From a virus: a DNA stretch of 64,000 nucleotides. The translations under genes were made by a program, and so were the position numbers. The notes beneath the pieces were generated by a model that made no database searches, had not been told where the DNA came from, and saw nothing but the letters and a program-made list of their open reading frames with translations. Location of the stretch: the IMG/VR virus record IMGVR_UViG_3300043419_002586; one strand, written 5' to 3'. Below are positions 3,006 through 42,495 of this stretch, piece after piece; position 1 is the stretch's first letter; every line of letters starts with the position of its first letter.

Positions 3006-6000
3006 TCAGACTATGTGAAGAATTTGACTTTCTATTGGTGTTCCGTAAGTGGTTCCATCATAAGGCTTGACAATAAAAGAAATTGCCATATTTCTCAAAA
3101 CCACAGCAGAGTTTAATAAACTACCTTCTGCTATTTTATTTGACACTCCATTAGTCCATTCAAACCATTCAATGGTGGATAAATCTGAAGATCCATTAAA
3201 ATTATAATAGGCTTGAAGAACACTGTTGGCAGAAATTTTACTGTCAACTATTGTATTTGTTGACTTAATTTGAACATCGTACACATAAGGCGCAGACAAA
3301 CTTTTGACAATTATTGGTTGTGAAGTGTATGTGATTCCATAATCAAAATTATCATTAGGTTCAAGAGTAACATAAACTTGATCGTTTATGTTAAAATAAC
3401 CATTGGCAGCATTCAAATCTGCTTTTCTTTGAACCAATTTATCTCTGTAATTAGGTGTGGAATCTAATTCTTCAGTGGTTGTTCCGCCACCAGATGTTCT
3501 TGTCCTGTACCATCTTGTTCTTGGTTTATATTGCTGATTATCGGAAATATAACTGTAATCAACATACATTCTTGAAGAACTTGAAATTTGTTTTGTAGAT
3601 CCGACAGATGCATAAGAAACATCTGAATTGATTACTAAACTTTCAGCTTTCAATGATGGAATATTAGTATTCAAATAATGAGAATATACATTTGAATTTG
3701 AAACAGTATTATGAGTAAATTCAAAGTTATAAGTTGTTGATGCAGTAGAAGAATATGTCTCTACTTTTAATCCCAATCTATATGTTGAACTTTGAAGAAT
3801 GAATAAAGTAATAATATCGGTTGCAGATTTATTAGTATCAAATATAATTTTGCCATCATATCTGTCTAACTTGTATCCACCACGAACTATCTCGTTGTTG
3901 ACAAGCACTACAATCTTGCTGTCTTCAGGCCATCTTCCATTTACAGCATAATAGTTCTTGTAATCTGTAGAAACTGTACCTTCACCATAAGCTTCATACC
4001 TTGAACCAGTTCTACTAATTGAAACTTGAACAATGTTTCCTAATGGCACTTCTTGTCGGAATGTTATAGTTCCATTTACATTGTCAATAGTGTAAAGATT
4101 GGTAGCAACAAGAGAAGAATTTAAATAAACTTCAACATTGTCCGAAAGAAGCCAAGTAAATCTAGTGTTGTCATTATATACAAAGTAAGTAAAATTATTA
4201 TTTACAGACTTTACGCAGGTAAGTTTGTCATAAAATAAAGCATTTGTATATTTGTATGATCTTTGTCTTGAAGAAATTATTCCATTTTTATTTTTGATTA
4301 ATTCTTCATAATCATTCCAATTTGTACTGTTTCCTTTGCATATGCCCCAAGTCAATTTAGCTTTATCAGTGTCAGAATAGTCTGTTGAAAGAATGTATTC
4401 AAAAATATCATCTGTGGAAGTTAAAGCAGTTGTAAATAAATAGTTGACAGCTGGAGATACTTCAGTGTAATATAATTGACTTACATAAGGAGAAATTGGT
4501 AGACTGGTAGAATTATTCCATCCTTCTGTCATATTAATTTGAAAATCTAAATTTGTAATTTCTTTATTAACAATAGATGTGGCAGTTAATGTAATCCAAT
4601 CGCTGTAATTCTTCTTATCTGTGGAATATTTGTATTTGACTACGCAAGAACTATCTACACTTTGCCCTGTAGAAACTGTGTATGCTGTAGTAATTGATTT
4701 TATAAATTTAGAAGTTTCAAATTCTACAGATTTATTCCAAGAACCAGCAAATATTGTATTAGATCCACCGTGCAATAAAGCTGTAGTAATTCCAGACCAA
4801 TAAGAGCTAGAAGCATCAAAATACAATCCATCTGTATTTTGCACTAATTGTCTTATGTTTCCAGTGTTTGTTTTATCATCCACACCAAATACAACTAATT
4901 TTGTACCTTGATTGCCCCAGCTGTAATTAATATTGTCTTCAATACTCTTAATAGAAACTGATGTATTGTTATCAGCATCAGAAACAATAAATGTTAATGG
5001 AATGTATGAACTAGCCAATCTTTCCATCATATATTTTGAAACTGTAGGATTGTTTGGAATTGAATCTGCCAAGCCATTCCAATCTTGTCTTAAATATACT
5101 TCTACTTGATCTGTATTTCCAATTGATGTAGTAAATGATACTTTGCCTGTAGATGGAATTACTGTATATCCTGAACCTAAAACTGCACCATTCTTAATTA
5201 CTTCAGCATATGGATAATCTGTAGTATTCCAAGTAAATGTGTTTGTACCATCAGTTGAAAAAGTAAGTGTAGAGCCAATAGAGCTGCCGATTTTAGGAAC
5301 AAGATTTAATTGCTTATTGCTTTCATTCTTGTATCTTTCTTTTAATAAATCGAGTCTTATTAAGTTTTCATCTGACAAGTAATCCTTGTAAGTTGAAATT
5401 AAAGATGTGTCTGCTATTCCTGAAATTGCTGCTGGTTGTTGTCCTATTAAAGCATATTCAAGACAGTCATATAAATTACTATTTTCACCATCAAGTTTTA
5501 AGGAATTGATTATTGATGTTATAGCTGTTCCTGAATTTGTGAAACCATTGCCCGTTTCGTGTTTTATAGATGTGCCAAAAGTCCAAAGGTCTGCAAAAGA
5601 AAATTGAGCATAATATTGTTGATTTGTTCTAGCAAAAATATTTGTCAAAAGACTATTGTATCCATTTACAAATCCTGACGACATTTTCATAGAAGCAGAA
5701 TTATCAAATACATTAGAAATTACAAATTTTGGCTTAAGATACAAATAACCATCATCGCTAGAAATTACACCTTTGCTAACACCGCTATCCCAATTTACTT
5801 CGGTGTTATCATAATTGCCAATAGGAACAATGGTTTCTATTGGAGCATATGAATTGTCATAATGAGCTCTGAAGAAAAAGTCATAACTTGTGCTAATTCC
5901 AGTCCAACTTATAGCGTTTGAACTTGAATATCCTAATCCTGAAAATGGATTATTTGTTGATGCTTTCTTCCACTTAAATAGAGGAACAGAGCTTGCAGTT

Positions 6001-9000
6001 TCTTTTATGACAAGTGCTAATGTTGTTGATCCTGTACCTGGAATATCTAATGCACTTATGAGATTGAAACTTGTAAATCCACCAACATTAACGCTAGAAG
6101 ATGTAATAGGACTTGACGCAGCTAATTGTGTTTGTGGTTTTACATTGGCATCTACAGAATAAACATAAGCTGTTAAAGTTGTATTTGCTAAACTGTCATT
6201 GTAAGAAGAATTGGAAAGTCCATCTTGTTCCCTAATTGACAAGAATGCAGATACTTTTGATATTGTGCTTGCTGTTGATGATGTAGTGAAAGTTTGAGCT
6301 AAATATCCAACAGAGCCACTATCACTTGCAATGAATCTTATGTCATTTGAAGGCTTGGATGAGAATAAAACTGGGCTATATCCTTCACTTGTATTCTCAC
6401 CAGTTCTATACCAGCAATCACCATCATCAAGAGTATACCAAATTCCGTTATTCGTACAAGCCACCAAAACATTTTGAGTAATAGAATTAAATGTGGAGGA
6501 AAATACTTGTAGATCATAAACACAAGTTGGCAGAGTACCGATATAATCAGATCTTTCAAAAGTATTTCCTTCATCGAAAGATCTATACACTCCATTATTT
6601 GTTCCGATATAAATTTTTGATCTACCAGGAGTATTACCAACAGCAGCTTCAGTGTCAATAGCATAAGAGAAACAATGAAGTCCTCTTAAATATCTACTAT
6701 CAACAATAAAATCAGAAGAATTTACATCATCAGGGTAAGAATATTTCCAGTTTCTTACCTTTAAAATTCCATCATTTGTAAGGATAAACAATGAATTTGC
6801 ATATGTAGTTGTATTTGTTGAAGAAGGAACACTATATGCTTGGAAAGATTTGTAATACTTGCTTACACCTTCAGGATTGCCAGAAATAAACATTTTTCTG
6901 GGAACGAGAAATGATGAGAATGATGAATATTGAGTGTCATTACCCATCACAAAATAACCATCATCTCCTGCTGCGTGTAAACTTTCAAATTCTTGCACAT
7001 TACCTAAACTATTCTTGATATATGTGCCCTTGAAAATTCCATTTACATTATTAGTAGTAAGTTTCAAAAAATCAGATAAGAAATTGGTTGTTCCTAATTT
7101 GACACTTAATCCATCACTTGTTGCAAATGCTTCGAATAAAGTGCCATTCCAGAAACCAGTGAGATAAGCATTTTGTCTTGCTGATGATGTTTGCTTTATC
7201 CAAGAACTGTCATATTTCCAAAGACCATTAGAAGCGCCAGCAATTACATTAAGATTTGGATCAAGAGCAATATAATTAGCATCAAAAGCGCCATCTAATG
7301 TGCTTTCAAGTTCCCAATATTTAGTGTATTTCCAAACACCCTTCTCTGTAATAATTCTAGTTCCAGTACCATCTTTTGTGAGATTGACAATTCCCTTAAC
7401 TTGAATTGGGTCGCTTTCAAAATCATTTACAGTAGGAACAAGTTCAGTTCTATTTTTGAATGATGAATTTAAGCTATCAAATTTAGCATTACTTGAAAAA
7501 TTATCAACTAGTAATGTATTTTTCAAACCTCTTGTATCAGTCTGTGAAATTGTTGGTGCAGTGAAATCAAAAATAGTTGAATTTAATGATTTGATCTTTC
7601 TTGCTAATTCTTGAATATTAGAATTATTTTCTGATGCTAAATTGTAGGTTTGGTTGGATATAGCAAGATACAAATCATCTTCCAATCCAGATACAATCTC
7701 GTTTTTTATTCCATAAACTTCAGCGCCAACGTCGTAAGTAGTTGTGCTTGTAAGTCTTGCTACAGATAAAGTTATTTCAATAGGAAATACAGTATTGTCA
7801 ATAGATTTAACTACTGCTATTTCATATTTATTACCAGCTTTCAATTGTATTAAAGAATAATTGCTAATTCTCTGATTGATATATATTTTAGTATCAGTGT
7901 TAGAGTTTGCTTTCGCTAATAATGCAATAGGCGTTTTAGTCTTGAAAAGGGGTACATAAGTAGAAGAATGTGGCTTTGTTCCGGCATCAGATATTGTTGG
8001 AAAATCATTTACTATAGATATCTTTACATTATCGACATCGTTCTTTAATACTGACTGTGTAAAAGTGATTTTGCCTTCAGATGGACTGGAATAAAATGGA
8101 ATAGTGCTAGGTTCATTGTTTATATAAGTAAAAATTCTAGTACTGTCTGTTTGTGTGTCAGTCCAAGGGTCAGTGGTAAATGTATTAAAACTCTTTTCAT
8201 AATATAACTGATCGCCTGAGACATAGGTAGATCCCATAGCTACTAATTGATATGGATAATTTAAAGTAAAATTAGATACTTGATTATAATTTTTATCAAA
8301 TACTGAGAATTCTGTCTCATTTTCAGAAAAAGTATCGTTAGGTCTTTTCCATCGATAATTCAAAGAAACTGTGCTGGATACGTTTACATCTTGCCACAAT
8401 AATTCAGTGCTAACAAAGATGCCATTTGTTGTTCCAGCATACAACTTACCAAAATTACTGCCATCATCATAACTGTAAAGTGCATTTGTCGAACCTTGGA
8501 AGACAGGCTCCCAAAAAAGTTCAGAATAGGCTACAGATGTTCCTAATGATGATTCTTGGACTCTTGCAATGCCATTAGAATGTCCAATGAAATAATCTGT
8601 TGGAAATGTTGTTGAATTTCTTTGAACAACACAATTGATGACACTACTTGAACCAGCTCCAGAAGGTGTTGAATTTTGATATATCTTTAATCTTTGAATT
8701 TCCCATAGCACATCAGAAGTGCCAAAATCAAATGCATCTTCAATAACAAGATACCAAGTACTGTCGTTATTTACAATTCCGTTTGATACGTATACTGTTT
8801 TCCAATTAATAAATTCAGCATTTACATCAAGTTCGGTTGATCTAGTCCAACTTCCAGCAGATACAATATAAATTCCATTTTCAGCTTTATTAGTTTGATT
8901 TTTGACAAGAACAATATTACCAGCAATAACAGCAACACCATCAATAGTTTGCGTTCCAGTGAGTGCTATATCTTCTGTTGTGGCGCATAAAGCATTTGAG

Positions 9001-11588
9001 AAAGATGTTGATGTTTGTGAAAATGGAAGAGACCAATACTTACCTGTAGCATCTTCATAATATTTTGCTGTGTGAGTGATAAATGCCTGATAATCATTCC
9101 ACCAGATAAGATTATTTTTGTATGCGCCATCTTTAATCCAATAAATTCCCTTTACTGGCTCGTTAAATATTTGAGATAATTGGCTAAAATCACCAAAGTA
9201 TAAACCTTTCGTACTAGTGCCAATTGCTCCAACATACAGTGCTCTTTGAATTGTAATGTCATCAGTCTCACCAGAAACAAATATAGTTTTCTGTGTTGAT
9301 ATTTCTTCAATTCCAGAAAGATTATAAATATTTGTAATTGCTGTACCTGAAGAATTGTAGAAAGAGGAAATTTCATTCCAATTCCAGTTTTGATATGCTG
9401 TATTGTCAGGAATTATAGCATAGTAAACTTTTTCAGATGATAAACCATATTGATAAGTCTGATATGTTCCATCAGCTAATTTATCAGAAGAAATCTTAAA
9501 GCCAACTAATGTTTTTGCAATTCCACTAGTGTCTGTTGGTAATTTCAAATTTTCCCAAACATTACTTGTATTGTTATAATAAACTTTACCTAAAGAAGTG
9601 AAAGCATAAACATTCTTAAAGTAGTTTTCATTTGTTGGATAAATTATGTTATCTTGAAGCGATAAAATTTTTCCATAATCATTTTGCCAGTTAGTTGTTT
9701 GCGCTGTGTTACTACCTAAATTGAAGCTAAACAATCCTCTAGAAGATGATGTGTAAATCAAATTCAAACTAGTAATAATGTTTGCACTCTTATAGAAGTA
9801 GCTAATGTCATCGTTGTATTGAATGTAAGAATTTGTATTTTGAGGATACAGATATGACTTTCCAATTCCAGTGGTTAAAAATTTGTCTGGAGTAAAAGTC
9901 AAAGGTTGCTTATATCTATTCTCGCTGTAATGATTGATCTTTAAATTATTTATTGAAACCTTGCCTGTAGATATGCTATTGGCAGATAAATTCTTTATGT
10001 AATCATTTGTAAGATTGTTTATAATTTCAGTCTTACGTGTTTTAATTACAACAGATAAATCAAGGAAAGTATATTGATCATAATTAGGTATAGAACTTTT
10101 CAGTAATATACAGCCAGAATAAGGATTAACTGTATAGTGAACTGGATCTATCAATGTTTCTGCCAAATAAACTTCAGCAGTATCATATTGAAAATTTGTC
10201 CAAGAGAATAAGGTGTAAAGGTCAGTGGTTAGACCAGAAGCATTTGTGTATTGATAAATTGTTCCATCACTTAATTTGATATATGTGTTGAATGTAAGGG
10301 CTGTAGATAATAATTCTTGGCTACTATTTACTGCTATTAAATTTTTATCAACAGCATATGGTAAATACACCTCAAGCTTGGATGTTGATTTGATGCTTTG
10401 GTTTAGATAAATCTTATATGGGCTACTTGATTCACTTATTGTGTATTCTGAACTGGAAAGAAGAATGCCATCAAGTTTAACAATAGGTGTACCGTATGAA
10501 GAAATGGTGTCATTAAATAAGGTTCCATCAGAATTCTTCAATACAAAAATTGAAGAATTTTCATAGCTTGAAACTCCATCATTAGAAGAAGCTATCAAAA
10601 CTAAATAATTTTTAAGATCTATCTTTGCTGCAGTGTTTATTTCACCCAGATGCTTATGCTTCAAATAAGATAATTGAAGTTGTCTCTGAAATTCTCCAGC
10701 AGTTTCATTTATTTGATTTCTTCTTTCTTCGTATATAATTTCTGAAACAGTATTGAAATCAGTGTATGTAGTGTCTGCTTTGTAAATTACTGTGGCTAGA
10801 TATACAGCATTTGAATAAGTGTTATATTTTGCATCTGGAATTGATGGAAAAGATATATTGCAAATTTCATCTGATAAGGTTGATATTCCAGATTCAGCCC
10901 AAGCATAAAAAGTATTTGCTATAGTTTGTCTAAAATAACGGGGTTTTTCAGTTTTGGCAGCATATTTATCAATAATTCCATCACCTGTACTAACTTTTAT
11001 GCATTGTTTGAAAGCATCTTGGAAATAGAGGTTTGATGAGCCTAAAGTAAAGTTTGTTGATGAAACTGCGCCAAGCCAAAGTGTTTTTTCGTTAGTTGAT
11101 CCAGAACTTACAAAAACAACAAAATTATCAGAATAATCAGATGTTGTATTGAGACTTGAATGTCTTGTCCAGGTTGAAGATGAAACAGTGTAAACGCCAT
11201 TTTGTGTAGCTGTAGATTGATCTTTTACTAATACAATATCGCCAGCAACAACAGAAACTCCATCAATAGTTTGTGCGCCAGAAAGAGTGATATTTATTGT
11301 GGTAGCTGCTAAACAAGATACAGTGAAATCCAGATTTAATAGTGATAACTTTTGTCCATATTCACTTGTAGCGCTTGTATTATATCCATCTAGAAGTAAT
11401 ATTTGATCAGCTCTATTTTCTGATAATTTAGATACATCCCAGCCATTTATAACTCCAGGACCTAAAAAAGAGTATATGCCTGAAAAATTAGATTCAGCTG
11501 TAAGCATATTTTCATAGTCATAACCTGGATACCAAATATCGCCAAATTGTGAAAATAAAAACTTGTAAATTGATGTACGATTAGCCAT
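3006..11588 (-). CDS. Giant (2860 aa) multidomain virion fibre/adhesin-like protein: two TIDGV tail-fibre motifs, beta-propeller/Asp-box repeats, vWA domain, C-terminal Ig-like repeats
   Basis: ATTxxIxLxGxQTIDGVxVxAGxIVLVKxQ...NGxYxVS..WTR twice; YRSFDEGNTF and WYTLDDGDCW Asp-boxes; FDNSASM MIDAS motif; several YT(V/I)xxxxGxIxF repeats. Confidence 0.75.
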   Translation of the reverse strand: MANRTSIYKFLFSQFGDIWYPGYDYENMLTAESNFSGIYSFLGPGVINGWDVSKLSENRADQILLLDGYNTSATSEYGQKLSLLNLDFTVSCLAATTINITLSGAQTIDGVSVVAGDIVLVKDQSTATQNGVYTVSSSTWTRHSSLNTTSDYSDNFVVFVSSGSTNEKTLWLGAVSSTNFTLGSSNLYFQDAFKQCIKVSTGDGIIDKYAAKTEKPRYFRQTIANTFYAWAESGISTLSDEICNISFPSIPDAKYNTYSNAVYLATVIYKADTTYTDFNTVSEIIYEERRNQINETAGEFQRQLQLSYLKHKHLGEINTAAKIDLKNYLVLIASSNDGVSSYENSSIFVLKNSDGTLFNDTISSYGTPIVKLDGILLSSSEYTISESSSPYKIYLNQSIKSTSKLEVYLPYAVDKNLIAVNSSQELLSTALTFNTYIKLSDGTIYQYTNASGLTTDLYTLFSWTNFQYDTAEVYLAETLIDPVHYTVNPYSGCILLKSSIPNYDQYTFLDLSVVIKTRKTEIINNLTNDYIKNLSANSISTGKVSINNLKINHYSENRYKQPLTFTPDKFLTTGIGKSYLYPQNTNSYIQYNDDISYFYKSANIITSLNLIYTSSSRGLFSFNLGSNTAQTTNWQNDYGKILSLQDNIIYPTNENYFKNVYAFTSLGKVYYNNTSNVWENLKLPTDTSGIAKTLVGFKISSDKLADGTYQTYQYGLSSEKVYYAIIPDNTAYQNWNWNEISSFYNSSGTAITNIYNLSGIEEISTQKTIFVSGETDDITIQRALYVGAIGTSTKGLYFGDFSQLSQIFNEPVKGIYWIKDGAYKNNLIWWNDYQAFITHTAKYYEDATGKYWSLPFSQTSTSFSNALCATTEDIALTGTQTIDGVAVIAGNIVLVKNQTNKAENGIYIVSAGSWTRSTELDVNAEFINWKTVYVSNGIVNNDSTWYLVIEDAFDFGTSDVLWEIQRLKIYQNSTPSGAGSSSVINCVVQRNSTTFPTDYFIGHSNGIARVQESSLGTSVAYSELFWEPVFQGSTNALYSYDDGSNFGKLYAGTTNGIFVSTELLWQDVNVSSTVSLNYRWKRPNDTFSENETEFSVFDKNYNQVSNFTLNYPYQLVAMGSTYVSGDQLYYEKSFNTFTTDPWTDTQTDSTRIFTYINNEPSTIPFYSSPSEGKITFTQSVLKNDVDNVKISIVNDFPTISDAGTKPHSSTYVPLFKTKTPIALLAKANSNTDTKIYINQRISNYSLIQLKAGNKYEIAVVKSIDNTVFPIEITLSVARLTSTTTYDVGAEVYGIKNEIVSGLEDDLYLAISNQTYNLASENNSNIQELARKIKSLNSTIFDFTAPTISQTDTRGLKNTLLVDNFSSNAKFDSLNSSFKNRTELVPTVNDFESDPIQVKGIVNLTKDGTGTRIITEKGVWKYTKYWELESTLDGAFDANYIALDPNLNVIAGASNGLWKYDSSWIKQTSSARQNAYLTGFWNGTLFEAFATSDGLSVKLGTTNFLSDFLKLTTNNVNGIFKGTYIKNSLGNVQEFESLHAAGDDGYFVMGNDTQYSSFSSFLVPRKMFISGNPEGVSKYYKSFQAYSVPSSTNTTTYANSLFILTNDGILKVRNWKYSYPDDVNSSDFIVDSRYLRGLHCFSYAIDTEAAVGNTPGRSKIYIGTNNGVYRSFDEGNTFERSDYIGTLPTCVYDLQVFSSTFNSITQNVLVACTNNGIWYTLDDGDCWYRTGENTSEGYSPVLFSSKPSNDIRFIASDSGSVGYLAQTFTTSSTASTISKVSAFLSIREQDGLSNSSYNDSLANTTLTAYVYSVDANVKPQTQLAASSPITSSSVNVGGFTSFNLISALDIPGTGSTTLALVIKETASSVPLFKWKKASTNNPFSGLGYSSSNAISWTGISTSYDFFFRAHYDNSYAPIETIVPIGNYDNTEVNWDSGVSKGVISSDDGYLYLKPKFVISNVFDNSASMKMSSGFVNGYNSLLTNIFARTNQQYYAQFSFADLWTFGTSIKHETGNGFTNSGTAITSIINSLKLDGENSNLYDCLEYALIGQQPAAISGIADTSLISTYKDYLSDENLIRLDLLKERYKNESNKQLNLVPKIGSSIGSTLTFSTDGTNTFTWNTTDYPYAEVIKNGAVLGSGYTVIPSTGKVSFTTSIGNTDQVEVYLRQDWNGLADSIPNNPTVSKYMMERLASSYIPLTFIVSDADNNTSVSIKSIEDNINYSWGNQGTKLVVFGVDDKTNTGNIRQLVQNTDGLYFDASSSYWSGITTALLHGGSNTIFAGSWNKSVEFETSKFIKSITTAYTVSTGQSVDSSCVVKYKYSTDKKNYSDWITLTATSIVNKEITNLDFQINMTEGWNNSTSLPISPYVSQLYYTEVSPAVNYLFTTALTSTDDIFEYILSTDYSDTDKAKLTWGICKGNSTNWNDYEELIKNKNGIISSRQRSYKYTNALFYDKLTCVKSVNNNFTYFVYNDNTRFTWLLSDNVEVYLNSSLVATNLYTIDNVNGTITFRQEVPLGNIVQVSISRTGSRYEAYGEGTVSTDYKNYYAVNGRWPEDSKIVVLVNNEIVRGGYKLDRYDGKIIFDTNKSATDIITLFILQSSTYRLGLKVETYSSTASTTYNFEFTHNTVSNSNVYSHYLNTNIPSLKAESLVINSDVSYASVGSTKQISSSSRMYVDYSYISDNQQYKPRTRWYRTRTSGGGTTTEELDSTPNYRDKLVQRKADLNAANGYFNINDQVYVTLEPNDNFDYGITYTSQPIIVKSLSAPYVYDVQIKSTNTIVDSKISANSVLQAYYNFNGSSDLSTIEWFEWTNGVSNKIAEGSLLNSAVVLRNMAISFIVKPYDGTTYGTPIESQILHIV

Positions 11589-11594
11589 TACTAC

Positions 11595-24271: not shown

Positions 24272-24292
24272 TTGTAACCACCGCTAAACAGG

Positions 24293-24308: not shown

Positions 24309-24328
24309 TTTGCCAGCCGATGTAGCCC

Positions 24329-25294: not shown

Positions 25295-25298
25295 AAAT

Positions 25299-32074: not shown

Positions 32075-32109
32075 ATTAATATTATAAAAAATAAAAAGGG
32101 TTTATACCT

Positions 32110-35100
32110 TTACCCAGCAACTTGATTGATTGGATAAGCAGTTGGATATTGGGGGTCTATAGAATATCCACCTGGTTTAGTAATTGTAAATGAATATGAT
32201 GAAGGCTTAACATTAGAAGCTAAAATTATTGAATGATTTCCACCAGCAGCAATGTCTGATATTCCGGTCACACTCATATTAGGAAGAACAACACCATCAG
32301 GAATACCATCTCTTAGATTTATTGAAATAGAACTTGAAATTGACTGGGCATAACCAAGTTGTCCATAATCATTCAAACCATATGGATAAAAAAGATTTTC
32401 CGATAAAGCCAAGAATCCAAATTTACCTGTAGAAACTTTTAAGAATTTTTCATTTGGATTTAAGTCTGATGCTAATCCTGCACTAAAATCATACTGAGGC
32501 ACTTCACTTGACGAAAAATTATAAAGGTATATTGCATGATCATAAAATAGGTCTTGAGAAGCTGTTATCACCACTAATCTGTTTTCGTAAGTTGAAATAT
32601 CATAGGCATATCCCCAACCCCTCAATGTAGATAATCCAGTAAACCAAACTATTTGATTGTCAATATCGTATGAAAGTCCAGATACGAAACCAGAAAAATT
32701 GTTAAATCCTACTTCTAATCTAAACGGGTTAAGATAATTTGTGCTTCCAAGTTGTAAATCTGGATTAGGATCAATATTAATTGGAAAGAATCCAGTGTCA
32801 ACGATTCCAGTTTTATTCGTGTATCTATGACTACCTGCTACCCAAACTTGCTTATTATCTGTGAAAGCAAGAATATAAGAATTACAAGATACATCCAACA
32901 AACCATTATTTGATGTGTAACTTGCCCCACTAAAAGTATTCGCTCTTTCTAATATAGGTTGAAAATTAAATATATTTGTTCTTGGTAATGCTTGTCCAAA
33001 AATTCCATTAATATTAGAACCACAAACCAACAAGACTCTTTTGCTAATTGTTATATCTTCTGCAATTATAGCTGAACAATAGTCTCCAGCAGATACCTTT
33101 AAAACTTTATATTTTGACGCAAGAGGTACTAACGTTAGTGAATTTTGCTGAGTTATATTTGATGGAAATCCAAGTTGTCCATTACTGTTTGAACCACTTG
33201 CATAAAGTTTTCCATCTGCATCAACTACAAAAGTATGATAAAGACCACTTTCTATAATAGTATATTGTTTTGTGTCATCAACTAATTCAAAGCCATATCT
33301 GTTTGACGTATTTGTTCCACTTGCTATTGCCCCATATAATGCTTGTCCAGATGAAAATAATTTGTTAACTAAAGGATTTAAAGCAGCGGAAACTTTCACA
33401 TCAACAGAATATCTATTTCCTAAATTTGAACTAGGCGATGATGCTAACTTTTGTGTATCAAAAACAATTAAGCTTACTGTAAATATTCCTTCTGTATTGA
33501 ATTGATTTACAAAAGTAGAATTGTATCCTGACTTTACACCATCAATTGACCATTCATATGTAATATTTGATCCATCTTCAGAGTCATAAGAATTAGTACC
33601 ATCAAAAGTATAACTGTCTCCAACTTTTAATTCGATGTACCCCGTAACAGATGGTTCGTTTCCAAGTATTGCAATTGGGTTTTGATTAATTGGTGGTGGT
33701 GCAGGATCTTGAAACACAAATATTGTTTTATTTACTGGATCAGACTCTAAGCCTAAATTATCAAAAACACTCAAGGTTATTGTATGATTACCTACACTAT
33801 CAAACGATGTTTCAAATGTTGAGGTGTTAGAATTTTGATCAATTCCGTCCTTGAGCCATTTATAACCACTTATAAATTGATTTAAGTCAGGGTCATAACT
33901 TCCAGAAGCAGTAAAAACTATTGAAGTATTTATTCTCAAAGAAACTATACTAGATGGCAAAGTATCTAAAAGTGCCACAGGTTTACTGTTTTTAACAATG
34001 TAGTCAAGGTATGCAGTATTTGTTGCAGCTAAATTATCTGTAACCTTAAGAGCAACTTTGTAAGTGCCTGGATTTGAATAAGTGGTAGCTGCAATTATTT
34101 GATCTGAAGTATTACCATTACCAAAATCCCAAGCATATACAAGTGGGCCGTTTATATTGTCAGGATCGTAACTTCCTGCAGCTGAAAATGTAACTGAAAT
34201 TGGAGCAAAACTTGTATTAGATGGAGGATTGGCTGATATAACTGCAACTGGTGGCTCATTTGGTGTATTTACCTTGACACCAATATTTGCTAAATCACTA
34301 AAAGCACCATCATCATCTTGAACTCTAAGTGTTACAGAGTATGGAACAAATCTTGCTGTGTCAAAAGTATAAGTAAAAGATTTGGTTTTGAAAGGAGTGC
34401 CAAGCAATCCATTTATATACCATTCATAGTTTACTACTGTTCCATCAAGATCATAAGAATTTGAATCGAATGTGACTGTGAATGGTGCAATACCAGTGAT
34501 TACATTATTTATAGGTGAACTACTTGTTGATATTACAGCAAATGGTTTTCTGTTATTTATTCTTACGATTTGAGATGTTGTATTGAATAACCCCAAATTA
34601 TCATAAACAGTAAGAGATACGGTGTAATCCTTATTGCCCTTGTTATATGATTTAATTGGATTTTTTTGTAATGGATCAGTTGTTGTAAAACTTGTTCCGT
34701 CACCATAATCCCAAGACCATCTTATCAAAGCATTTTCTGGATCACTAGAATTGTCTATAAAAGCAATAGAATCAAAGGTATTGGCATTTATTGGATTATA
34801 TGAAAAACTTGCGACAGGAGGTTGGTTATTTATTGTTATAGTCTGAACTGATCTTGCAGTTTCTAAACTAACACCATTTCGATTATCTGTAACTATTAGT
34901 TTTGAAGTAAAATTTCCTACAGATTTGTAAACGTGAGAAAAAGATGCAGGATTTACAAATTGTGTAGAAGATCCATCTCCAAAATCTATTTGATATAAAA
35001 TAATAGAACCATCTGGATCTCTTGAGTCTGATACGTTAAAAATAAATGTATCATTTATCACACCAAAATTTTTATCCACTGTAAGAATTGCAAGTGGAAG

Positions 35101-38100
35101 TATATTGTCAGGAGGAGTTACAATCACTGTAACGTTTGCAGTGTCAGTAGATCCAAAATCATCAGTTACTGTAAGGGACACTACATACGTACCTTCTGTA
35201 GTGAAATTGATTGTTGCATTAGGTGTTGATGAAACAACGGAACCAGCAACACTCCAATTATAAGAAACAATAATTCCATCTTCGTCTGTAGAAGTGTCAC
35301 CATTAAGTATTAAACTACCTGGCGCTTTAACAGTCAAAGTTGTATAGGTTATTCTAGCTATTGGGCTTCTGTTAGTGACATTTATTATCAAATTAGCTAT
35401 AGAAGTGTCTCCTATATTATCAGTTACAGTTAATTGAGCTTGATATGTTCCTGGTCTAGAATATGTATGAGATTCAGTTGTTCTTCCTTGAGATATAATT
35501 GTTCCATCGCCAAAATTCCAAGCATACTTTGTAATAATTCCATCAGAATCATAAGAAGTATTTCCAAAGAAATTTATTTGATTTTTGGACAGTACTGAAT
35601 TTGGAAAAGCTGAAAATATTGCAACTGGAGGATTGTTCTTAATTACGATATCTAAGAAATATGTGTTTGACAAGTTACCATCATCAGTAACAGTTAATTT
35701 GACTGGATATGTTCCTGATCTTGTGAAAGTATGAGCAACAGTTTTTTGATATGTTTGCGAATTGTAAAAAATAGTATTGCCAGTTTCGAATTCCCACAAC
35801 CAACTTACTATTTTTCCATCAGAGTCCGTAGATTCATCTGTAAATATAATTGAAGCTGGAGCTGAAATATTATTTGCATTTACAGTAAATAATGCTATTG
35901 GAGGCTGATTAGCTGGTGGTGGTTCAACAACAAACTGAATAGATGATGTTGTAGTTTTTTTATCTGTTCCATCAGGTAAACCATCATCAGTTACTGTAAG
36001 AGAAACTGTATATGTCCCTGGAAATAAGTAAGTATTTGTTGGATTCTTTAAGTTTGAATCTGTTGTCGTAAATGTATTACCATCACCAAAATTCCAATTC
36101 CACTGAGTGATAAAACCATCAGGGTCAGAAGATGTTTCTGTAAATTTACCAATAAGAGGTTTGAAATTTGTTTGTGTACCTGTAATATTAGAAATTATTG
36201 GTGAAATATTTACTAATGGTACTACAACAACATTTTTAGTTATTGAACTAGATTTACCAGAATTGTCAGTAACAGTAAGTGTAACTTGATATGTGCCAGA
36301 TGATAAATAAGTATGAGATGGATTCTGAACAGTATTAGTAGAATTATCACCAAAATTCCAAATCCAGGAAGATATTACTCCATCTGTGTCTGATGATGTA
36401 TCTGTAAAATCAATAATTAATTTTCTATTTTGTTGTGAAAATAAAAAATTTGCTATTGGTGGATTGTTTCCTGGTGGGTCAACTGTGACTCTTATTGAAG
36501 CTGATGCTTTTAAACCTCCAGAGTCAGTCACAGTAAGAACTACTAAATATGTACCAGGAAATGCATAAATATGTTCTGGATTTTGAACTTCAGCTGTTTG
36601 ATTATCTCCAAAATTCCAGTTCCAAGCAACTATTGGCCCTTCGTCGTCACTGGAACTATCAGTAAACTGAACTTTTAATGTTGGTGAAAATGATGTTTGC
36701 GCCCACTTAAAATTTGGTGATGGCGGATTATTGACTGTCCCATTTACATTTATAACAGGACCAAAAAATTTGCTTGATAAACGAGCTAAATTATCCTTTA
36801 CAAAAAGGGTTGGAGTAAATGAGCCTGCTCTTCTGTAATCGTGAGTAAATGACGAATTATCAAACTTTATAGCAGTTTCACCATCGCCAAAGTCCCATTC
36901 ATATGTCTGTATAAAAGATCCATCATTTGCTGGGTTAGATTGATCTGTAAATGATACAGTTAGTATTACGTCTCCAGAAGTTGGCGTTGCAGAAAATTTA
37001 GCTTGTGGTGAAAGATTATTTACTGGCGCTGGATTTACAGTTATTACAATTGTTGCTGGTACACTACTTATTCCATTTGCATTTGTAGCAATCAAAGTTA
37101 CCTTAAAATCAATTGGACTTGTTGTATTGTTAACAAAAGTATGCGTTGGATTTTCTTCAGTAGATTGAGTTTCATCTCCAAAATTCCAGGCATATGTAAT
37201 AGTACTTCCTCCTGGATCATAAGAATTAGTAGATAAAAAGCTCACAAATAATGCTGATTGTCCATTAGTTGGATTAGCTTGAATATCAGCAATAGGAGTT
37301 GTGTCTTTTATATTAGATCCAGAATCATTTACACATTCTATATCAAACTTTCTAGTGCCTAATATTTTTGAATAAGGATGAAATAATACTGCTTCTATAT
37401 TACATTTACCAGTGTCAAAAGCAACAAATACTTTTCCATCATAATCTTGTTTTTTACAAGTAATCAAAGCTGGTCTTTGTCTGGGAACCTCAGCATTTAA
37501 TTCACTATTAGAATCAAAATACTTAACAATATTTCTTCTATTACTTAATTCTGAAACTAAAGCTTCATCTAATTTACCTTTTATTAAGTGCAATTTATCT
37601 GATCTTTTTTGTCCCAAATTGCTTGATGAAAGAGCGTATTCAAAATAATATATTCCTCCATTACACCAAAAAACTGATCTGTGTAACCCTAACTTTTCAT
37701 CGTAATCAGAAGTCAAGCCATAAATATTATATTGATCAGAAAGAGTGTTTCCAGTAAGTTCATCTAAATCAAAAAGTGTATTTTTATTCTGTGCTTCATA
37801 ATTTGAAATAATCTTGAAATTAATTTTTCTTGGTGACGAATTCAAAGAATAAGCAACAATATAATCTCTTGAGGAAATTTGAGCTACTGTAGGAAATGAT
37901 GAATATGCTGTACCAGATGAAGTAATTGGTTCTATCAGTCTAAAATCAGAAATGTAAGTAGGAGCAATACCATCAATAAAAATTGTTTTATCAGTTATAG
38001 GTGCATTTATATTTGTAGTACTTAATTGAATTGATCTAAAAACAATTGCTCCAGGATCAGCGTATCCAACATTAAATAATTGAGGAGCCTGATCAGAAAC

Positions 38101-41100
38101 CACATAAGAATTGTATTTTGTTCCCTTGAAAGCTTTCGATAAAGTAGAAAAATTTGCATCTATCTTGGATTGTCCATCGATAAATGGATGCCAAGAAAAT
38201 TTATTTCTCATATCTGTATTTGCTGCGATAAGAGATTCGTAATCGTGAGAACTTCTTGCTTTAGTATTTGAATTTCGTTCTGTAAGTAAAAATGTATTTA
38301 CTTTTGTTCTTTGATTAAGTTGTGTTTCAGAACTTAACAAAAATGGAAATTCACCCTTGATAGTTACTCCACTTCCTGTTGTAGAATTATAACCTACCGG
38401 GTATTTTTCATATTGTTGTGTGAAAAATGAATCAGTGGAAATGATTACTGTTTGATTTTCTTCACCAGGTTTTGTTGAAGGTACAGTGTAAGCAATTACT
38501 ATAGATTTTTCAAACCCTGATTCACAAGCTGAAAGATTTGTAGCAATATTTTGTTTTCCACCTTTGTAAGCTGCTCTTTCTCTTTTAGCTTGTGAAAAGT
38601 TTCGAGTAGAACTTCTAAAGTCTGACGGAATTTCAAAATTTTTAGACTTTTCCAATTCAATGTAATGATCAACTTTATTTTTTGCATAAACAGATCCAGT
38701 TTCGAAATATCCCTTATTATCGGATTCTGATGAACCTTTATTTTCTCTTGTAGATGCTTCAATCAAGTTTGCTTTTCTTAAGTTGTCTGGTGTACTTTTT
38801 TGAGGTGGCAAGATAAGCCCGTATCCAGGTCCTCTTGCAATCAAACCACCTCTCAAATGCAATGTGGACTCTTGAACTGTTCCATCTTGATTTCTTAATG
38901 AACTGTTTCCAAATAAGTCTGGTTTTCCTGGTGGAAAATTTCCATTTATTCTGTGAAATATAGTTTGTGCTAGAATTGTTTGTAATTCATTAAAAGAAAC
39001 ATTAATTGCATTAATATAAGATGTGCCTGATCCACTATTTTTACCACTTGGAACGGCTAAAATTCCATTCCCATACACCCAAGTTGCGTATCCAGAATCT
39101 GAGTTTAAATAGTCTGGATCTAATTTGTTTCCATAAATTCTATTACCAGTGATTGGATCTACAGGATAACTCTTATCAATTTTTTTTGCTTTCCAACCAG
39201 GATGTCTAATAATATTTGCTTGAGAATTGTTAGGATCTAACCATCTTGGATTAACATATGAATCAACTTTAGAAATTTCATCACATAATCCAGAAATAGA
39301 TTTAGGAAATAAAGTCCAAGTGTTGATGTTAGGCGTGATGGTGTTTTGCCAACTTATATCACCCTCTTCTTCATCTCTGCCGTCAGTGTTTTGTTGCCAA
39401 AATCTTCTAGTGTAATAAAAATTTTCTGAAACACTTGAATTATCAAATTTAGTTTTTTCTTGAAAAGTAGTGTTATTGCCAGATGTAATAAAATTACTAA
39501 GTGAATTATTACGAATTAATTTTACTTGTCCAAGTTCCAATTGTTCATTGTCAAGTTCAATTTTTGTGATTCTTGATATGCCATAGTAGGGACCATTTAA
39601 TGTTTCATCCTCTGGAGCATCATCAATAGCATTCACTTCAGGACCAGTAGGAGCATTTGTTATCAAGCTTGTGTTCAATAAACTATCTGCTGAGAAAGTT
39701 TTTTCTACTAATCTTACTGGTTTAACTGTAATTAATGGTGAATTAGCAGATAAAATGAAATTTTTATTATTTACAAATCTTGGTATGCCATCATAATCAG
39801 GTAGGCTATTTTTATCCAATTTAGCATATTCCAAGCTTGCTCTGTAAAAATTTTGATAATTTTCTATTTTATTAAACTTAACAACTATGCTAGTAAACTT
39901 ATCATCTGTAGCTCCATCCAAAAATTTCAACTTGATTGTAGATCCCATTGAAAATTTACTATTAGCATTAAAATCAGAAGGAATTTGTATAGTGAAATAA
40001 GCTTTGCCAGTGTTGGCTATATCATTAACATAATCAATAATTTTATATGATTTTATTAAATTTTTGGCTTTATCTTCAACTTCAATACCGTTATAAGGAT
40101 TTATTTGATTATTTTCATATGATGGTATCGGATTTATATATATAACTCCAGAACCATCCGCAAAATCAAATGTTGTTTTAGAAACTACTTCCGAGATATC
40201 TGGCAAACCTGGATCAAAATCATAAACTTCAAATTCATCAGGATAAGTTCCATCGTTACTACGATTTAATAATTCATCAATTGTTTTGCCATTTGTAAGG
40301 TCATTATTTACTATATAAATAAATAATTCTTTACGAGATATATCTTGAATCTCGCCATTCCAAGGTTTTGCTAACTTTATTCTGCCATTATTAACTCTTG
40401 GTTTGCCAAATATTATATTTGTACCAATTCCTGTTTTTGGAAATGCACTTGTATTTACCTCAAAATAATCTACTGCATTATCTTTAGAATCAGTAATATA
40501 AATAATACCAGAACTTTTTATTTTTTGTTTTATTTCATCTGTAATCCAATTAGATGATTCATTATCTTTGTTTGGTTTTGTAATGAAAAAATTATCTTTT
40601 GGAGAATTTTCTTTTGCTAGGTAACCAAAAGGATTTGCGGATTTTGGTTTTGATGTTGTGTAAGTGTTGAGTCTTGGATATGGAGAATCTTGATTGTCAA
40701 CAAAATCTATTTTATTAGATGGATTACACAAATCAATTCTTAATGTTTTGAACGATGATGAATCTGTTGATATGTTGAAAGTTTTTATAGATTCATTAGT
40801 AGAATTAGATTGCAATGTTGGACCTTTTGCAGTTTCAGTAATTGACAAATTACCACTTTGCAGCTGTCCTAATGATTTTAATTGAATTTCTAGGTATCTA
40901 TAACCAGAAAGATTTTGATCTCCATAATAATGTGGTTCGTTTGCGTTTCCATTATAAAATCTTTTATTTCCAGTGCCTTCAATGATGAATTCTTTATCTT
41001 GAATCAAAGACATAGAATTAAATTTCCAACCTCTTAAGGGTAATGGCACTGACCCTGGAAAATCATATTTATCTAATGTTAATTCTCTATTGGTTTCATT

Positions 41101-42495
41101 TATATCATAACAGCCATTTGTTGATCTTACAAACTTTGCAGGAAAATCATAGTTCTTAGGAGGGCTTTCTAAATCATCTAATGGTTCTTTGGATTTTATT
41201 GTGTCAACCAAACCAAAAATCCATTTTTGTTGATTATTAAAGTCCAATGATTTTGAAGTAGCAGACAATCCATCAGCTTCTCTAACTTCAATAAATCCGT
41301 AATAATTTCTATAAGTTTGCTCAATTAAGCCAACATTACCAGAGTTTGTTGATACAGTTGCATAAGTTGGTAATGCAACTGCTCTTTTTGAATTTCTAAA
41401 TATCTTTTTATTCTTACCATCAGAGTTAAATCCAATAACATAAGCTGTCAAGGGGTCTGTGTGTACGCTGTTCCAATCTAAAATTTTTGATTCAAATGTG
41501 ACTTTTCTAGGAGCATCAGACTTTAAGGATATTCTGGCTGTACACTTTGGATCATCAGTTCTAGTGGCACCAGGAAAAGGTTGCAAATAATAATTTTGAG
41601 TGTCAGCCTGAGCGTGATCTTTTCTAACAAAGTCTGGATCACCAGCATCAACAGGGACGTTGCTAGAAATACTTACATATCCTGAATTAGAACTAGTTGT
41701 AGTCCAAGCGTTAATGAACTTCTCATCTTCAATTTCAATATCAAGTTGTGAAGGTGCAGGAATTTCAAAACTCTTACTAAATGTTGTTACTTGCCCTTTT
41801 GGATTTGTAAATTTTAACTTCAAACCAACATATGATTTTGATTTAGGATCTATAGCTTCGTACCAATTTAAACTAGTATACTTTGGCCATTGTCTAACAG
41901 TATCTTTTGTAAGTTCTTTGTTTTTCCAATATTCATCTTCATTATCTGGACAAACAGGAGAGCCTATAAAATAATTTTCAGATGGATAATATTCATCAAT
42001 ATCAACAAATTCATTTGTTCCTAATCCGACAAAAAATTCACCCTCTATTGAACCTGATAATGTTTTATCTGGCTTTACATTTGGATCATAAGGTTCAGTA
42101 TAAAGGATTATTGTTTCAGAATACTCCTTGTAAACAATATCATTTGCTATTAATGAACCAGGAGATTGAATGAAAAAAGTCACTGGTATCTTGAGAACAT
42201 ATCTTCCACCATCTATAAAATTGCCAAAATTATACAAACCCCCTTGGTCAGGCCAAGGATGGTTTTCAGGTTTTGCTTCAGGACCTGTAGATGTTGAAGG
42301 TTTTTCACCAACATACAAAGAGCAAGAAACACTTTTGAGCTTAAAAACTGGGTAAGCGCCTGCACTAACACTTTGACGAACTCCAGTGCCTCTACTTGAT
42401 ATTAAATCGCCAGAAACTATATTTACCTGGTAATCAAACTTGAACTTACCTGTGTATTGCAAGTTACTAGATCTATCAATTTTATAGGTGGCCAT
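32110..42495 (-). CDS. Giant (3461 aa) protein: approx. 1730-aa unknown N-terminal region, 14 tandem PKD domains, C-terminal RCC1-like propeller
   Basis: Repeated PxAxF...SxDxDGxIxxxxW(N/D)FGD...HTY..PGTYxVxLTVTD; C-terminal ESGLYHT, GSNSNGQLG, VSAGDYCS, GLNDYGQLG, IAAGGNHS. Confidence 0.88.
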   Translation of the reverse strand: MATYKIDRSSNLQYTGKFKFDYQVNIVSGDLISSRGTGVRQSVSAGAYPVFKLKSVSCSLYVGEKPSTSTGPEAKPENHPWPDQGGLYNFGNFIDGGRYVLKIPVTFFIQSPGSLIANDIVYKEYSETIILYTEPYDPNVKPDKTLSGSIEGEFFVGLGTNEFVDIDEYYPSENYFIGSPVCPDNEDEYWKNKELTKDTVRQWPKYTSLNWYEAIDPKSKSYVGLKLKFTNPKGQVTTFSKSFEIPAPSQLDIEIEDEKFINAWTTTSSNSGYVSISSNVPVDAGDPDFVRKDHAQADTQNYYLQPFPGATRTDDPKCTARISLKSDAPRKVTFESKILDWNSVHTDPLTAYVIGFNSDGKNKKIFRNSKRAVALPTYATVSTNSGNVGLIEQTYRNYYGFIEVREADGLSATSKSLDFNNQQKWIFGLVDTIKSKEPLDDLESPPKNYDFPAKFVRSTNGCYDINETNRELTLDKYDFPGSVPLPLRGWKFNSMSLIQDKEFIIEGTGNKRFYNGNANEPHYYGDQNLSGYRYLEIQLKSLGQLQSGNLSITETAKGPTLQSNSTNESIKTFNISTDSSSFKTLRIDLCNPSNKIDFVDNQDSPYPRLNTYTTSKPKSANPFGYLAKENSPKDNFFITKPNKDNESSNWITDEIKQKIKSSGIIYITDSKDNAVDYFEVNTSAFPKTGIGTNIIFGKPRVNNGRIKLAKPWNGEIQDISRKELFIYIVNNDLTNGKTIDELLNRSNDGTYPDEFEVYDFDPGLPDISEVVSKTTFDFADGSGVIYINPIPSYENNQINPYNGIEVEDKAKNLIKSYKIIDYVNDIANTGKAYFTIQIPSDFNANSKFSMGSTIKLKFLDGATDDKFTSIVVKFNKIENYQNFYRASLEYAKLDKNSLPDYDGIPRFVNNKNFILSANSPLITVKPVRLVEKTFSADSLLNTSLITNAPTGPEVNAIDDAPEDETLNGPYYGISRITKIELDNEQLELGQVKLIRNNSLSNFITSGNNTTFQEKTKFDNSSVSENFYYTRRFWQQNTDGRDEEEGDISWQNTITPNINTWTLFPKSISGLCDEISKVDSYVNPRWLDPNNSQANIIRHPGWKAKKIDKSYPVDPITGNRIYGNKLDPDYLNSDSGYATWVYGNGILAVPSGKNSGSGTSYINAINVSFNELQTILAQTIFHRINGNFPPGKPDLFGNSSLRNQDGTVQESTLHLRGGLIARGPGYGLILPPQKSTPDNLRKANLIEASTRENKGSSESDNKGYFETGSVYAKNKVDHYIELEKSKNFEIPSDFRSSTRNFSQAKRERAAYKGGKQNIATNLSACESGFEKSIVIAYTVPSTKPGEENQTVIISTDSFFTQQYEKYPVGYNSTTGSGVTIKGEFPFLLSSETQLNQRTKVNTFLLTERNSNTKARSSHDYESLIAANTDMRNKFSWHPFIDGQSKIDANFSTLSKAFKGTKYNSYVVSDQAPQLFNVGYADPGAIVFRSIQLSTTNINAPITDKTIFIDGIAPTYISDFRLIEPITSSGTAYSSFPTVAQISSRDYIVAYSLNSSPRKINFKIISNYEAQNKNTLFDLDELTGNTLSDQYNIYGLTSDYDEKLGLHRSVFWCNGGIYYFEYALSSSNLGQKRSDKLHLIKGKLDEALVSELSNRRNIVKYFDSNSELNAEVPRQRPALITCKKQDYDGKVFVAFDTGKCNIEAVLFHPYSKILGTRKFDIECVNDSGSNIKDTTPIADIQANPTNGQSALFVSFLSTNSYDPGGSTITYAWNFGDETQSTEENPTHTFVNNTTSPIDFKVTLIATNANGISSVPATIVITVNPAPVNNLSPQAKFSATPTSGDVILTVSFTDQSNPANDGSFIQTYEWDFGDGETAIKFDNSSFTHDYRRAGSFTPTLFVKDNLARLSSKFFGPVINVNGTVNNPPSPNFKWAQTSFSPTLKVQFTDSSSDDEGPIVAWNWNFGDNQTAEVQNPEHIYAFPGTYLVVLTVTDSGGLKASASIRVTVDPPGNNPPIANFLFSQQNRKLIIDFTDTSSDTDGVISSWIWNFGDNSTNTVQNPSHTYLSSGTYQVTLTVTDNSGKSSSITKNVVVVPLVNISPIISNITGTQTNFKPLIGKFTETSSDPDGFITQWNWNFGDGNTFTTTDSNLKNPTNTYLFPGTYTVSLTVTDDGLPDGTDKKTTTSSIQFVVEPPPANQPPIALFTVNANNISAPASIIFTDESTDSDGKIVSWLWEFETGNTIFYNSQTYQKTVAHTFTRSGTYPVKLTVTDDGNLSNTYFLDIVIKNNPPVAIFSAFPNSVLSKNQINFFGNTSYDSDGIITKYAWNFGDGTIISQGRTTESHTYSRPGTYQAQLTVTDNIGDTSIANLIINVTNRSPIARITYTTLTVKAPGSLILNGDTSTDEDGIIVSYNWSVAGSVVSSTPNATINFTTEGTYVVSLTVTDDFGSTDTANVTVIVTPPDNILPLAILTVDKNFGVINDTFIFNVSDSRDPDGSIILYQIDFGDGSSTQFVNPASFSHVYKSVGNFTSKLIVTDNRNGVSLETARSVQTITINNQPPVASFSYNPINANTFDSIAFIDNSSDPENALIRWSWDYGDGTSFTTTDPLQKNPIKSYNKGNKDYTVSLTVYDNLGLFNTTSQIVRINNRKPFAVISTSSSPINNVITGIAPFTVTFDSNSYDLDGTVVNYEWYINGLLGTPFKTKSFTYTFDTARFVPYSVTLRVQDDDGAFSDLANIGVKVNTPNEPPVAVISANPPSNTSFAPISVTFSAAGSYDPDNINGPLVYAWDFGNGNTSDQIIAATTYSNPGTYKVALKVTDNLAATNTAYLDYIVKNSKPVALLDTLPSSIVSLRINTSIVFTASGSYDPDLNQFISGYKWLKDGIDQNSNTSTFETSFDSVGNHTITLSVFDNLGLESDPVNKTIFVFQDPAPPPINQNPIAILGNEPSVTGYIELKVGDSYTFDGTNSYDSEDGSNITYEWSIDGVKSGYNSTFVNQFNTEGIFTVSLIVFDTQKLASSPSSNLGNRYSVDVKVSAALNPLVNKLFSSGQALYGAIASGTNTSNRYGFELVDDTKQYTIIESGLYHTFVVDADGKLYASGSNSNGQLGFPSNITQQNSLTLVPLASKYKVLKVSAGDYCSAIIAEDITISKRVLLVCGSNINGIFGQALPRTNIFNFQPILERANTFSGASYTSNNGLLDVSCNSYILAFTDNKQVWVAGSHRYTNKTGIVDTGFFPINIDPNPDLQLGSTNYLNPFRLEVGFNNFSGFVSGLSYDIDNQIVWFTGLSTLRGWGYAYDISTYENRLVVITASQDLFYDHAIYLYNFSSSEVPQYDFSAGLASDLNPNEKFLKVSTGKFGFLALSENLFYPYGLNDYGQLGYAQSISSSISINLRDGIPDGVVLPNMSVTGISDIAAGGNHSIILASNVKPSSYSFTITKPGGYSIDPQYPTAYPINQVAG
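33390..37300 (-). repeat. Array of 14 diverged PKD domain repeats (approx. 90 aa each)
   Basis: Counted by eye from PxA starts and WxFGD-type motifs in the translation; boundaries approximate. Confidence 0.85.

Follow-up and report, generated by a model that had tools for sequence, protein, structure and literature searches.

Why should a phage carry ten consecutive genes that together encode 13,124 amino acids, seven of the ten products being between 960 and 3461 residues long, and what would such proteins do? The question is raised by the IMG/VR virus record IMGVR_UViG_3300043419_002586, of which a stretch of 64,000 nucleotides was analysed. This stretch, referred to below as the window, corresponds to bases 3310-67309 of a single 122,087-bp record (32% GC). 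It contains an unbroken string of minus-strand genes running from 49891 down to 3006, and the block considered here is the part at 3006-42495, about 39 kb. We conclude that the block is probably the host-adsorption module of a jumbo phage of about 360 kb, comprising the tail tip, the baseplate periphery and the fibres; the head genes of this phage are related to those of phage G. An earlier sequence-only reading had proposed an elaborate, branched adsorption apparatus assembled in the cytoplasm. An adsorption apparatus is still the best reading, because of the phage context, the strict synteny, the fold of the hub, and a fibre-type N-terminal module with swapped C-termini; the branching was not borne out.

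A fragment of a jumbo phage genome

Besides the block, the contig carries genes for a major head protein (which matches phrog_2522, E 3e-67), for a portal and for a large terminase; it also encodes a prohead-protease-like domain, and a Mu gp36-like head-tail adaptor lies 12 kb from the block. The capsid protein shares 48% identity with Bacillus phage G gp27, and the portal and prohead protease also match phage G. A cellular contig would have spoken against a virion apparatus; the capsid gene that was looked for is present, with portal and terminase, and the contig is phage along its whole length, as is its 358-kb relative.

CheckV gives the record as 34% complete. The relative, G003, has 358,269 bp and is 89% complete. 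Its homologue of g1304, a gene upstream of the block, is split across both contig ends (81-2009 and 356237-357976), and because the two halves sit at opposite ends the G003 contig is a closed or circularly permuted genome. The present contig is a fragment of an uncultured jumbo phage with a whole genome of about 360 kb, and the label of 'provirus' attached to it in IMG/VR looks like a classification artefact.

The block genes and the divergent plus-strand structural genes are found in the same order in G003 and in a further relative, G002, with amino-acid identities of 75-95% in G002 and 50-71% in G003. In the three genomes compared, the identity of the giant proteins is even along their length, except for the first ~100-400 residues of the largest, g3461, where it is 28-56%. 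Metagenomic orthologues of the hub fall into 92 clusters, those of g3461 into 65, and those of p816, a protein considered under tail type below, into 201 (the last from JGI, ENA, NCBI and Logan assemblies), and the lineage therefore appears widespread in metagenome assemblies. Among 50,697 cultured or deposited phage records, no large protein that was tested is matched over its full length, and g1221 and p816 have no matches at all. No description of this block was found in the literature searched.

Layout of the block

In window order from 3006 to 42495, and all on the minus strand, the gene products have 2860, 1282, 505, 988, 1451, 321, 1221, 75, 960 and 3461 residues, and the genes are named here by these lengths. 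Neighbouring genes either overlap or are 1-57 nt apart, several starts overlapping the preceding stop. The open reading frames (ORFs) are exactly as the sequence-only reading had them, namely ten consecutive genes with seven products near or above 1000 residues, a conserved 75-aa ORF being the tenth.

That reading had also stressed the lack of signal peptides. By a crude test, in which Kyte-Doolittle values were averaged over 19-residue windows in the first 60 residues, no block protein has a window that reaches 1.0, so that there is indeed no signal-like N-terminus, and a Pfam search of the block proteins gave no secretion-tail domain. However, the absence of signal peptides is expected of phage structural proteins, and is not a peculiarity of this block.

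A baseplate hub with an interrupted fold

The protein that does most to identify the block is g960 (29192-32074, minus strand), which had been described as hub-like. An AlphaFold (AF2) model was built from an alignment of 34 orthologues with 27-88% identity, and has a mean pLDDT of 81.6 and a pTM of 0.78. Foldseek matches this model to hubs of contractile injection systems and phages (E 2e-13). Structural comparison using VIA gives as the best match the phiCD508 needle (9g8s_q, Z 20.9, 301 of 311 residues, rmsd 2.9), with PVC, AFP, diffocin and VgrG bases (various chains) at Z 16-20, Mu gp44 (1wru) at 18.2, the 80alpha hub (6v8i_AE) at 17.1, T4 gp27 (1k28_D) at 16.2 and T5 pb3 (7zqp_b) at 11.7. 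The protein also matches the baseplate hub family phrog_196 (E 6e-8), and among predicted viral structures those closest to it belong to uncharacterised proteins from uncultured phages. Single-sequence searches of the PDB with g960, g938 and g1221 gave nothing. The fold of the model, found by both Foldseek and VIA, confirms that g960 is a true baseplate hub of the gp27/Mu gp44 type, with the gp27 / Mu gp44 / VgrG-base fold extending over residues ~5-958.

Only some 300-330 residues align, yet the aligned range spans residues ~5-958, so that the hub fold must be interrupted. The interruption at residues ~84-384 (30923-31825, minus strand) is modelled as a jelly roll of the GH16/concanavalin-like type, with VIA scores of Z 10.9 for 6t2o and 10.8 for 5dze. 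A motif search showed that the catalytic GH16 motif ExDxE is absent from it, and for this reason the predicted jelly roll is probably a binding module rather than an enzyme.

In its fold, g960 resembles the hubs of T4, Mu and P2 (gp27, gp44 and gpD) and the VgrG bases, with ~300-330 residues superimposing at Z 16-21. It differs from them in that the fold is split by the ~300-aa jelly roll, and in that there is no beta-helix spike of the gp5/VgrG type in the chain, which ends with the hub fold and has no C-terminal spike extension. No spike gene (gp5, gpV or PAAR) was identified, and no homologues of gp25, gp6 or gp7 were detected near g960.

Two fibre-like proteins with a common N-terminal module

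Two of the block proteins are fibre-like. The first, g1221 (25299-28964, minus strand), consists of a conserved N-terminal module of ~300 residues and a C-terminal NHL-type propeller (residues ~780-1221). An exhaustive search with g1221 produced 213 clusters at the 50% level, most of which match only through the first ~300 residues; this N-terminal part is borne by proteins of 380-1684 aa that have unrelated C-termini. It has 11 invariant columns, including H176, H178, H226 and H237. In T4, the trimeric fibre proteins gp12 and gp37 are known to bind metal through an HxH pair. For the C-terminal part, a profile built from 39 diverse family members finds, in the PDB, the NHL propellers of Pizza, TRIM71, Brat and PknD, with E values from 6e-18 to 3e-7; the Pfam NHL model is found in 3 of these 39 relatives and not in g1221 itself. 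Shallow-profile searches of the PDB with g1221, p413 and p490 gave nothing useful.

The second is g2860 (3006-11588, minus strand), whose N-terminus (residues 1-327, window 10608-11588) is paralogous to the anchor module of g1221: the g1221-family profile matches residues 1-177 (E 3e-8) and 197-327 (E 5e-7). Two Ig-like domains are found at 11019-11375 and 8697-9074. The first of these, at residues 72-190, lies largely inside the first stretch matched by the profile. It is solely through its ~100-aa Ig-like domains that g2860 matches anything in the 50,697 phage records. There is also a possible degenerate propeller.

Towards the C-terminus, g2860 has a vWA-like domain with an insertion of ~120 residues (window 4812-5738). 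The Pfam model VWA_2 reaches 13.2 bits against a cut-off of 27 at 5451-5711, which is where the sequence-only reading had placed a vWA domain, and a search with PF00092 gave no match; of the motifs in this region, DxSxS is present as DNSAS and is followed later by SDAD. The insertion itself (residues ~2056-2176, window ~5060-5420) is missing from the G002 orthologue, and is therefore an insertion/deletion polymorphism. For the Asp-box, three loose motifs were located in g2860 at residues 1039, 1670 and 1719, with no match to Pfam BNR.

Thus, as judged from their sequences, g1221 and g2860 share a docking-type N-terminal module and differ distally. This is the usual layout of fibres and receptor-binding proteins, the argument being that a constant N-terminal module is joined to many different C-termini in the metagenomic relatives.

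Stalks, propellers and Ig-like domains

The largest protein, g3461 (32110-42495, minus strand), starts with a chain of beta-sandwiches or jelly rolls (residues 1 to ~1000), followed by a polycystic kidney disease (PKD) repeat array at residues ~1705-3025 (33421-37383, minus strand). The array is well above the gathering cut-off (PF18911/PF00801, 533.9 bits over 12 stretches; PKD_4, E 3e-164 with 12 units), and could hold ~15 units. At the C-terminal tip is an RCC1-like beta-propeller, residues ~3040-3460 (32116-33378, minus strand), for which PF00415 gives 46 bits (cut-off 21.7) and PF25390 gives 77 bits, below its cut-off of 150; PF13540 was also matched. A subgroup of shorter orthologues, of ~2880-2960 aa (P0226, P0227, P0263-P0265, P0273 and P0274), has no RCC1, a hint that the tip is open to exchange or loss.

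The N-terminal 1200 residues of g3461 were modelled with AF2 from 25 orthologues. The mean pLDDT is 69.6, and the model, which is good to about residue 950, is an all-beta string of sandwiches. Fold comparison gives only weak leads to LamG and carbohydrate-binding module (CBM)-like folds (Z 5-7.8), those to CBM-like folds (Z 5-6.5) being within the noise range. A Dit or tube-initiator domain was sought in this region; Foldseek found no credible match, and the best VIA score, Z 7.8, is within noise.

The two proteins g505 and g1282 are best considered together. Nearly all of g505 (15433-16950, minus strand) consists of SWM repeats of the SwmB type (PF13753, 32.9 bits, cut-off 27), with internal repeats over the whole protein. 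The next protein, g1282 (11595-15443, minus strand), has a PA14 domain at residues 760-863 (window 12855-13166; PF07691, 26.9 bits, cut-off 24), and is the most conserved of the block proteins, with 95% identity in G002 and 71% in G003. Their homologues in G003 form a single ORF of 1791 aa, whereas here and in G002 there are two translationally coupled ORFs, and we therefore take g505 and g1282 to act as one unit. The two overlap by 11 nt (window 15433-15443; L018:1206-6581, minus strand), the start codon of g1282 lying within the end of g505, and the fused and the separate forms differ by a 1-nt difference in frame at the junction. This represents a fission or a fusion; a frameshift site is less likely.

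The two remaining giant proteins carry the same kind of phage Ig-like domain as g2860. There is one in g988 (16950-19916, minus strand), at residues ~407-528 (window 18333-18698), and two are found in g1451 (19916-24271, minus strand), at residues ~816-1013 (window 21233-21826). This promiscuous domain matches the 'tail fiber' and 'head decoration' families of PHROG, with E values down to 3e-48, and the solved capsid decoration protein PDB 9nx3 (E 4e-11); it occurs on both head-decoration and gpH-type fibre proteins of cultured phages.

It is worth adding that g1451 and the protease gene are each closely preceded by a motif AGG-N20-GAAT (window 24330 and 3005, minus strand), which may mark internal promoters.

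Most of the modules named in the sequence-only reading are thus present: PKD, SWM, PA14 and RCC1 are detected by Pfam, and the Ig-like domains, the NHL propeller and the hub by other evidence. The others fared less well, the vWA domain being sub-threshold, the CBM-like domain a weak fold lead, and the Asp-box limited to the three loose motifs. Relaxing the E value in the Pfam searches added nothing for g2860, g988, g1451, g960, g321, p490, p128, p413 or p195.

A proposed mechanism

From their sequences, the distal parts of the large proteins would all be binding-type modules: an NHL propeller in g1221, Ig-like and vWA-like domains in g2860, a PKD stalk with RCC1 in g3461, and an SWM stalk with PA14 in g505-g1282. 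Taking as a basis the identified domains, the fold of the hub, the synteny and the shared module described above, we infer the following scheme, in which assembly order, stoichiometry and ligands are the conjectural part. Once folded in the cytoplasm, the block proteins would come together around the hub at the end of the tail. The hub would close the tail end, exposing three lectin-like insertions, while g1221 and g2860 would dock by means of their common N-terminal module and so present the NHL propeller and the array of Ig-like and vWA-like domains. To these, g3461 would add a long PKD stalk with a propeller at its tip, and g505-g1282 an SWM stalk with a PA14 lectin. Many low-affinity contacts with sugars or surfaces could then add up, through avidity, to a firm hold on the cell envelope, and bring the hub into position for delivery of DNA.

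Several observations weigh against this assignment to the tail tip. The N-terminus is the least conserved part of g3461, which is unusual for an anchor. Conservation of the giant proteins is even and rather high, and a comparison of the three genomes shows no hypervariable tips. No fold was assigned to g1451, g988, g321, or most of g2860 and g1282, and the Ig-like domain that several of the proteins share occurs on capsid decoration proteins too. Finally, no sheath, gp25-like protein or gpJ-like wedge by which the block might be connected to a tail was detected with Pfam models in the contig or in G003.

Tail type

The last of these points leads to the question of what kind of tail the block belongs to. 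Pfam models for the sheath (PF04984 and PF17482), gp25 (PF04965) and Baseplate_J (PF04865) match nothing in the contig, nor in G003, which is 89% complete. As a positive control, the same sheath models do find the sheath of phage G, gp178. Divergent proteins may nevertheless escape Pfam models, and the sheaths of divergent jumbo phages often do. The protein p816 was considered as a sheath and rejected: it has no Pfam or PHROG match and no similarity to the phage G sheath, and the atlas gave only its own cluster.

There are some indications of a tail tube. By language-model features, p413 falls with clusters of the Phage_tube_2 / T5 p140 type (score 0.97). In G003, both PF18906 (E 2e-5) and phrog_290 match an ORF of 320 aa that is weakly similar to p490; this ORF is at 305622-306584, 10 kb beyond the g2860 homologue, and so falls outside the present contig. 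Together these suggest that p490 and p413 (L005:2911-6595; contig 66910-70594, plus strand) may be paralogues with a tail-tube fold. Tube folds occur in both tail types.

The most durable of the alternative explanations starts from these results. It holds that the 360-kb phage has a non-contractile tail like that of T5, of which the block would form the giant tip; tails of this kind have yet to be described for such genomes. The lack of Pfam matches to sheath, gp25 and Baseplate_J, the tube-like features of p413 and of the G003 ORF, and a hub that lacks a spike extension are all consistent with it. We nevertheless regard it as unlikely, since the sheaths of divergent jumbo phages so commonly go undetected by sequence models, since the head genes are akin to those of myoviruses (phage G and cluster C mycobacteriophages), and since the best matches of the hub are to contractile systems, even if the hub of the non-contractile phage 80alpha scores nearly as high; the evidence for a tube is either sub-threshold or based on features, and does not discriminate between tail types. 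If the block is taken to be a tail module, then a contractile tail is somewhat favoured and a non-contractile one is appreciably less probable, though a serious contender; these two gradings presuppose the tail-module reading and are on a different scale from the others given here.

The fullest form of the idea would combine a head of the phage G type with a sheath-less tail and a new kind of tip, made up of a split, lectin-bearing hub, giant PKD and propeller arms, and two fibres sharing an anchor. We consider this doubtful. If it were true, no other known genome with a non-contractile tail would come near this one in size. The sequence-only reading had suggested an undescribed tail architecture, and this goes further than the data: what was found is the lack of any Pfam match to sheath, gp25 or gpJ, alongside a control in which the phage G sheath was recovered.

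Other possible locations for the giant proteins

A second alternative is that some of the giant proteins decorate the capsid, the neck or the tail shaft rather than the tail tip. The matches of the Ig-like domain to capsid decoration proteins fit with this, as does a further protein of 1567 aa (p1567) encoded beside the head-tail adaptor genes, and both capsid fibres and hairy tails have precedents among jumbo phages (PMC13282480). However, the giant genes form an uninterrupted string with the hub gene, the N-terminal module of g2860 is common to g1221, and only g75 separates g1221 from the hub; we therefore think it improbable that these proteins are placed elsewhere on the virion. It is highly improbable that they are not virion parts at all, being instead surface adhesins, cellular or phage-made, with a dedicated secretion system for their export, or else proteins that the phage ejects into its host: although the domain types are those of exported adhesins and IMG/VR carries the label 'provirus', the proteins have neither signal-like N-termini nor secretion-tail domains, the block sits in phage DNA and contains a hub, and beta-rich modules of lectin type are ill-suited to ejected proteins. 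A host-adsorption module at the tail end is thus the reading that we retain.

Comparison with known systems

Adhesin-type modules (Ig-like, PKD, CBM and propellers) are already well known on phage fibres, and the display of Ig-like, PKD and FN3 domains on fibres, baseplates and capsids is general. The block differs from the usual display of such domains in its scale, with at least 12 PKD units in one chain and 13,124 residues in ten genes. These genes take up ~11% of the ~360-kb genome.

Fibre networks have been described in several jumbo phages, as the hyperbranched fibres of phiKp24, the tail hairs of Erwinia phage Y3 and the capsid fibres of PTm1 and PTm5, and so have unusually long proteins (PMC13282480). 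The Klebsiella jumbo phage phiKp24 (Ouyang et al. 2022, PMC9700779, as cited in PMC13282480) resembles the present phage in having a long run of genes for many different tail-end fibre proteins, but it has many depolymerase-type fibres and a contractile tail, whereas here there are a few giant proteins of PKD, Ig-like, propeller and lectin type. No depolymerase domain was detected in the block, and no sequence similarity to phiKp24 was found.

There is also a resemblance to the Dit/Tal tips of siphophages (J-1 Dit, 5ly8; T5 pb3, 7zqp), in which beta-sandwiches of carbohydrate-binding type are inserted, and the hub is about the size of T5 pb3. Here the matches are weak, however, with the N-terminus of g3461 reaching only Z 4.8 against the CBM2 of the Lactobacillus phage J-1 Dit (5ly8).

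By its capsid, portal and prohead protease, the closest cultured relative is phage G (Donellivirus; Bacillus/Lysinibacillus), which also has giant tail proteins. Its tail module (gp178-gp189) has been described (PMC12484599). Unlike the head genes, the tail modules are not recognisably shared, because the sheath, hub-region and gpJ/gpI-like proteins of phage G have no detectable similarity to p816, g960 or g1221. Counterparts were sought by comparing the g1221 family with gp188/gp189 and the hub with gp185, and these were rejected, there being no similarity. When all ORFs of the contig were compared by phmmer with two regions of phage G, only head genes and the clamp loader matched. We also considered equating the lineage with the moraphages, which have T4-type gp19, gp25, gp6 and sheath VOGs (PMC12619734), and did not adopt this, as those T4-type VOGs are not detectable here.

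The block is therefore best described as a familiar kind of machine with different and very large parts, having a split hub and no detectable hallmarks of a contractile tail. As the 50,697 records gave no full-length match to any large protein tested, it represents an uncharted set of attachment proteins. It lends itself to studies of host finding in very large phages, and offers new modules for the binding of sugars and surfaces. The block alone overturns no current idea.

Smaller and neighbouring genes

Two smaller proteins complete the block. Between the hub gene and g1221 is g75 (28964-29191, minus strand), the stop of which overlaps the start of g1221. It is 99% identical in G002 and 47% in G003, its position being kept in both, and it could be a small accessory protein of the hub or spike. 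The other, g321 (24329-25294, minus strand), is conserved.

Upstream of the block, the same gene string continues with g938, g214 and g1304 (42497-49891, minus strand). Of these, g938 (window 47075-49891, minus strand) is by far the fastest-evolving, with 48% identity in G002, where its neighbours have 85-95%, and 25% in G003. The protein, in which a single segment (residues ~587-616) is strongly hydrophobic, may be a tape measure or ejection protein. The product of g214 is charged, while that of g1304 is rich in N, I and K, its gene having 23% GC. As a group, the three would be conjectural candidates for tape measure, chaperone or ejection proteins.

Just upstream of g938 is an ORF of 58 aa with two CxxC pairs, resembling a zinc ribbon (window ~49895-50074, minus strand). 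It falls in the 260 nt of 'intergenic' sequence between g938 and the divergent plus-strand genes.

Among the head genes, the portal gene (L003:3776-6136, minus strand) has a C-terminal stretch that matches PHROGs for HNH and homing endonucleases, and the terminase (L003:13806-17018, minus strand) is unusually long at 1070 aa; both features hint at inserted mobile elements.

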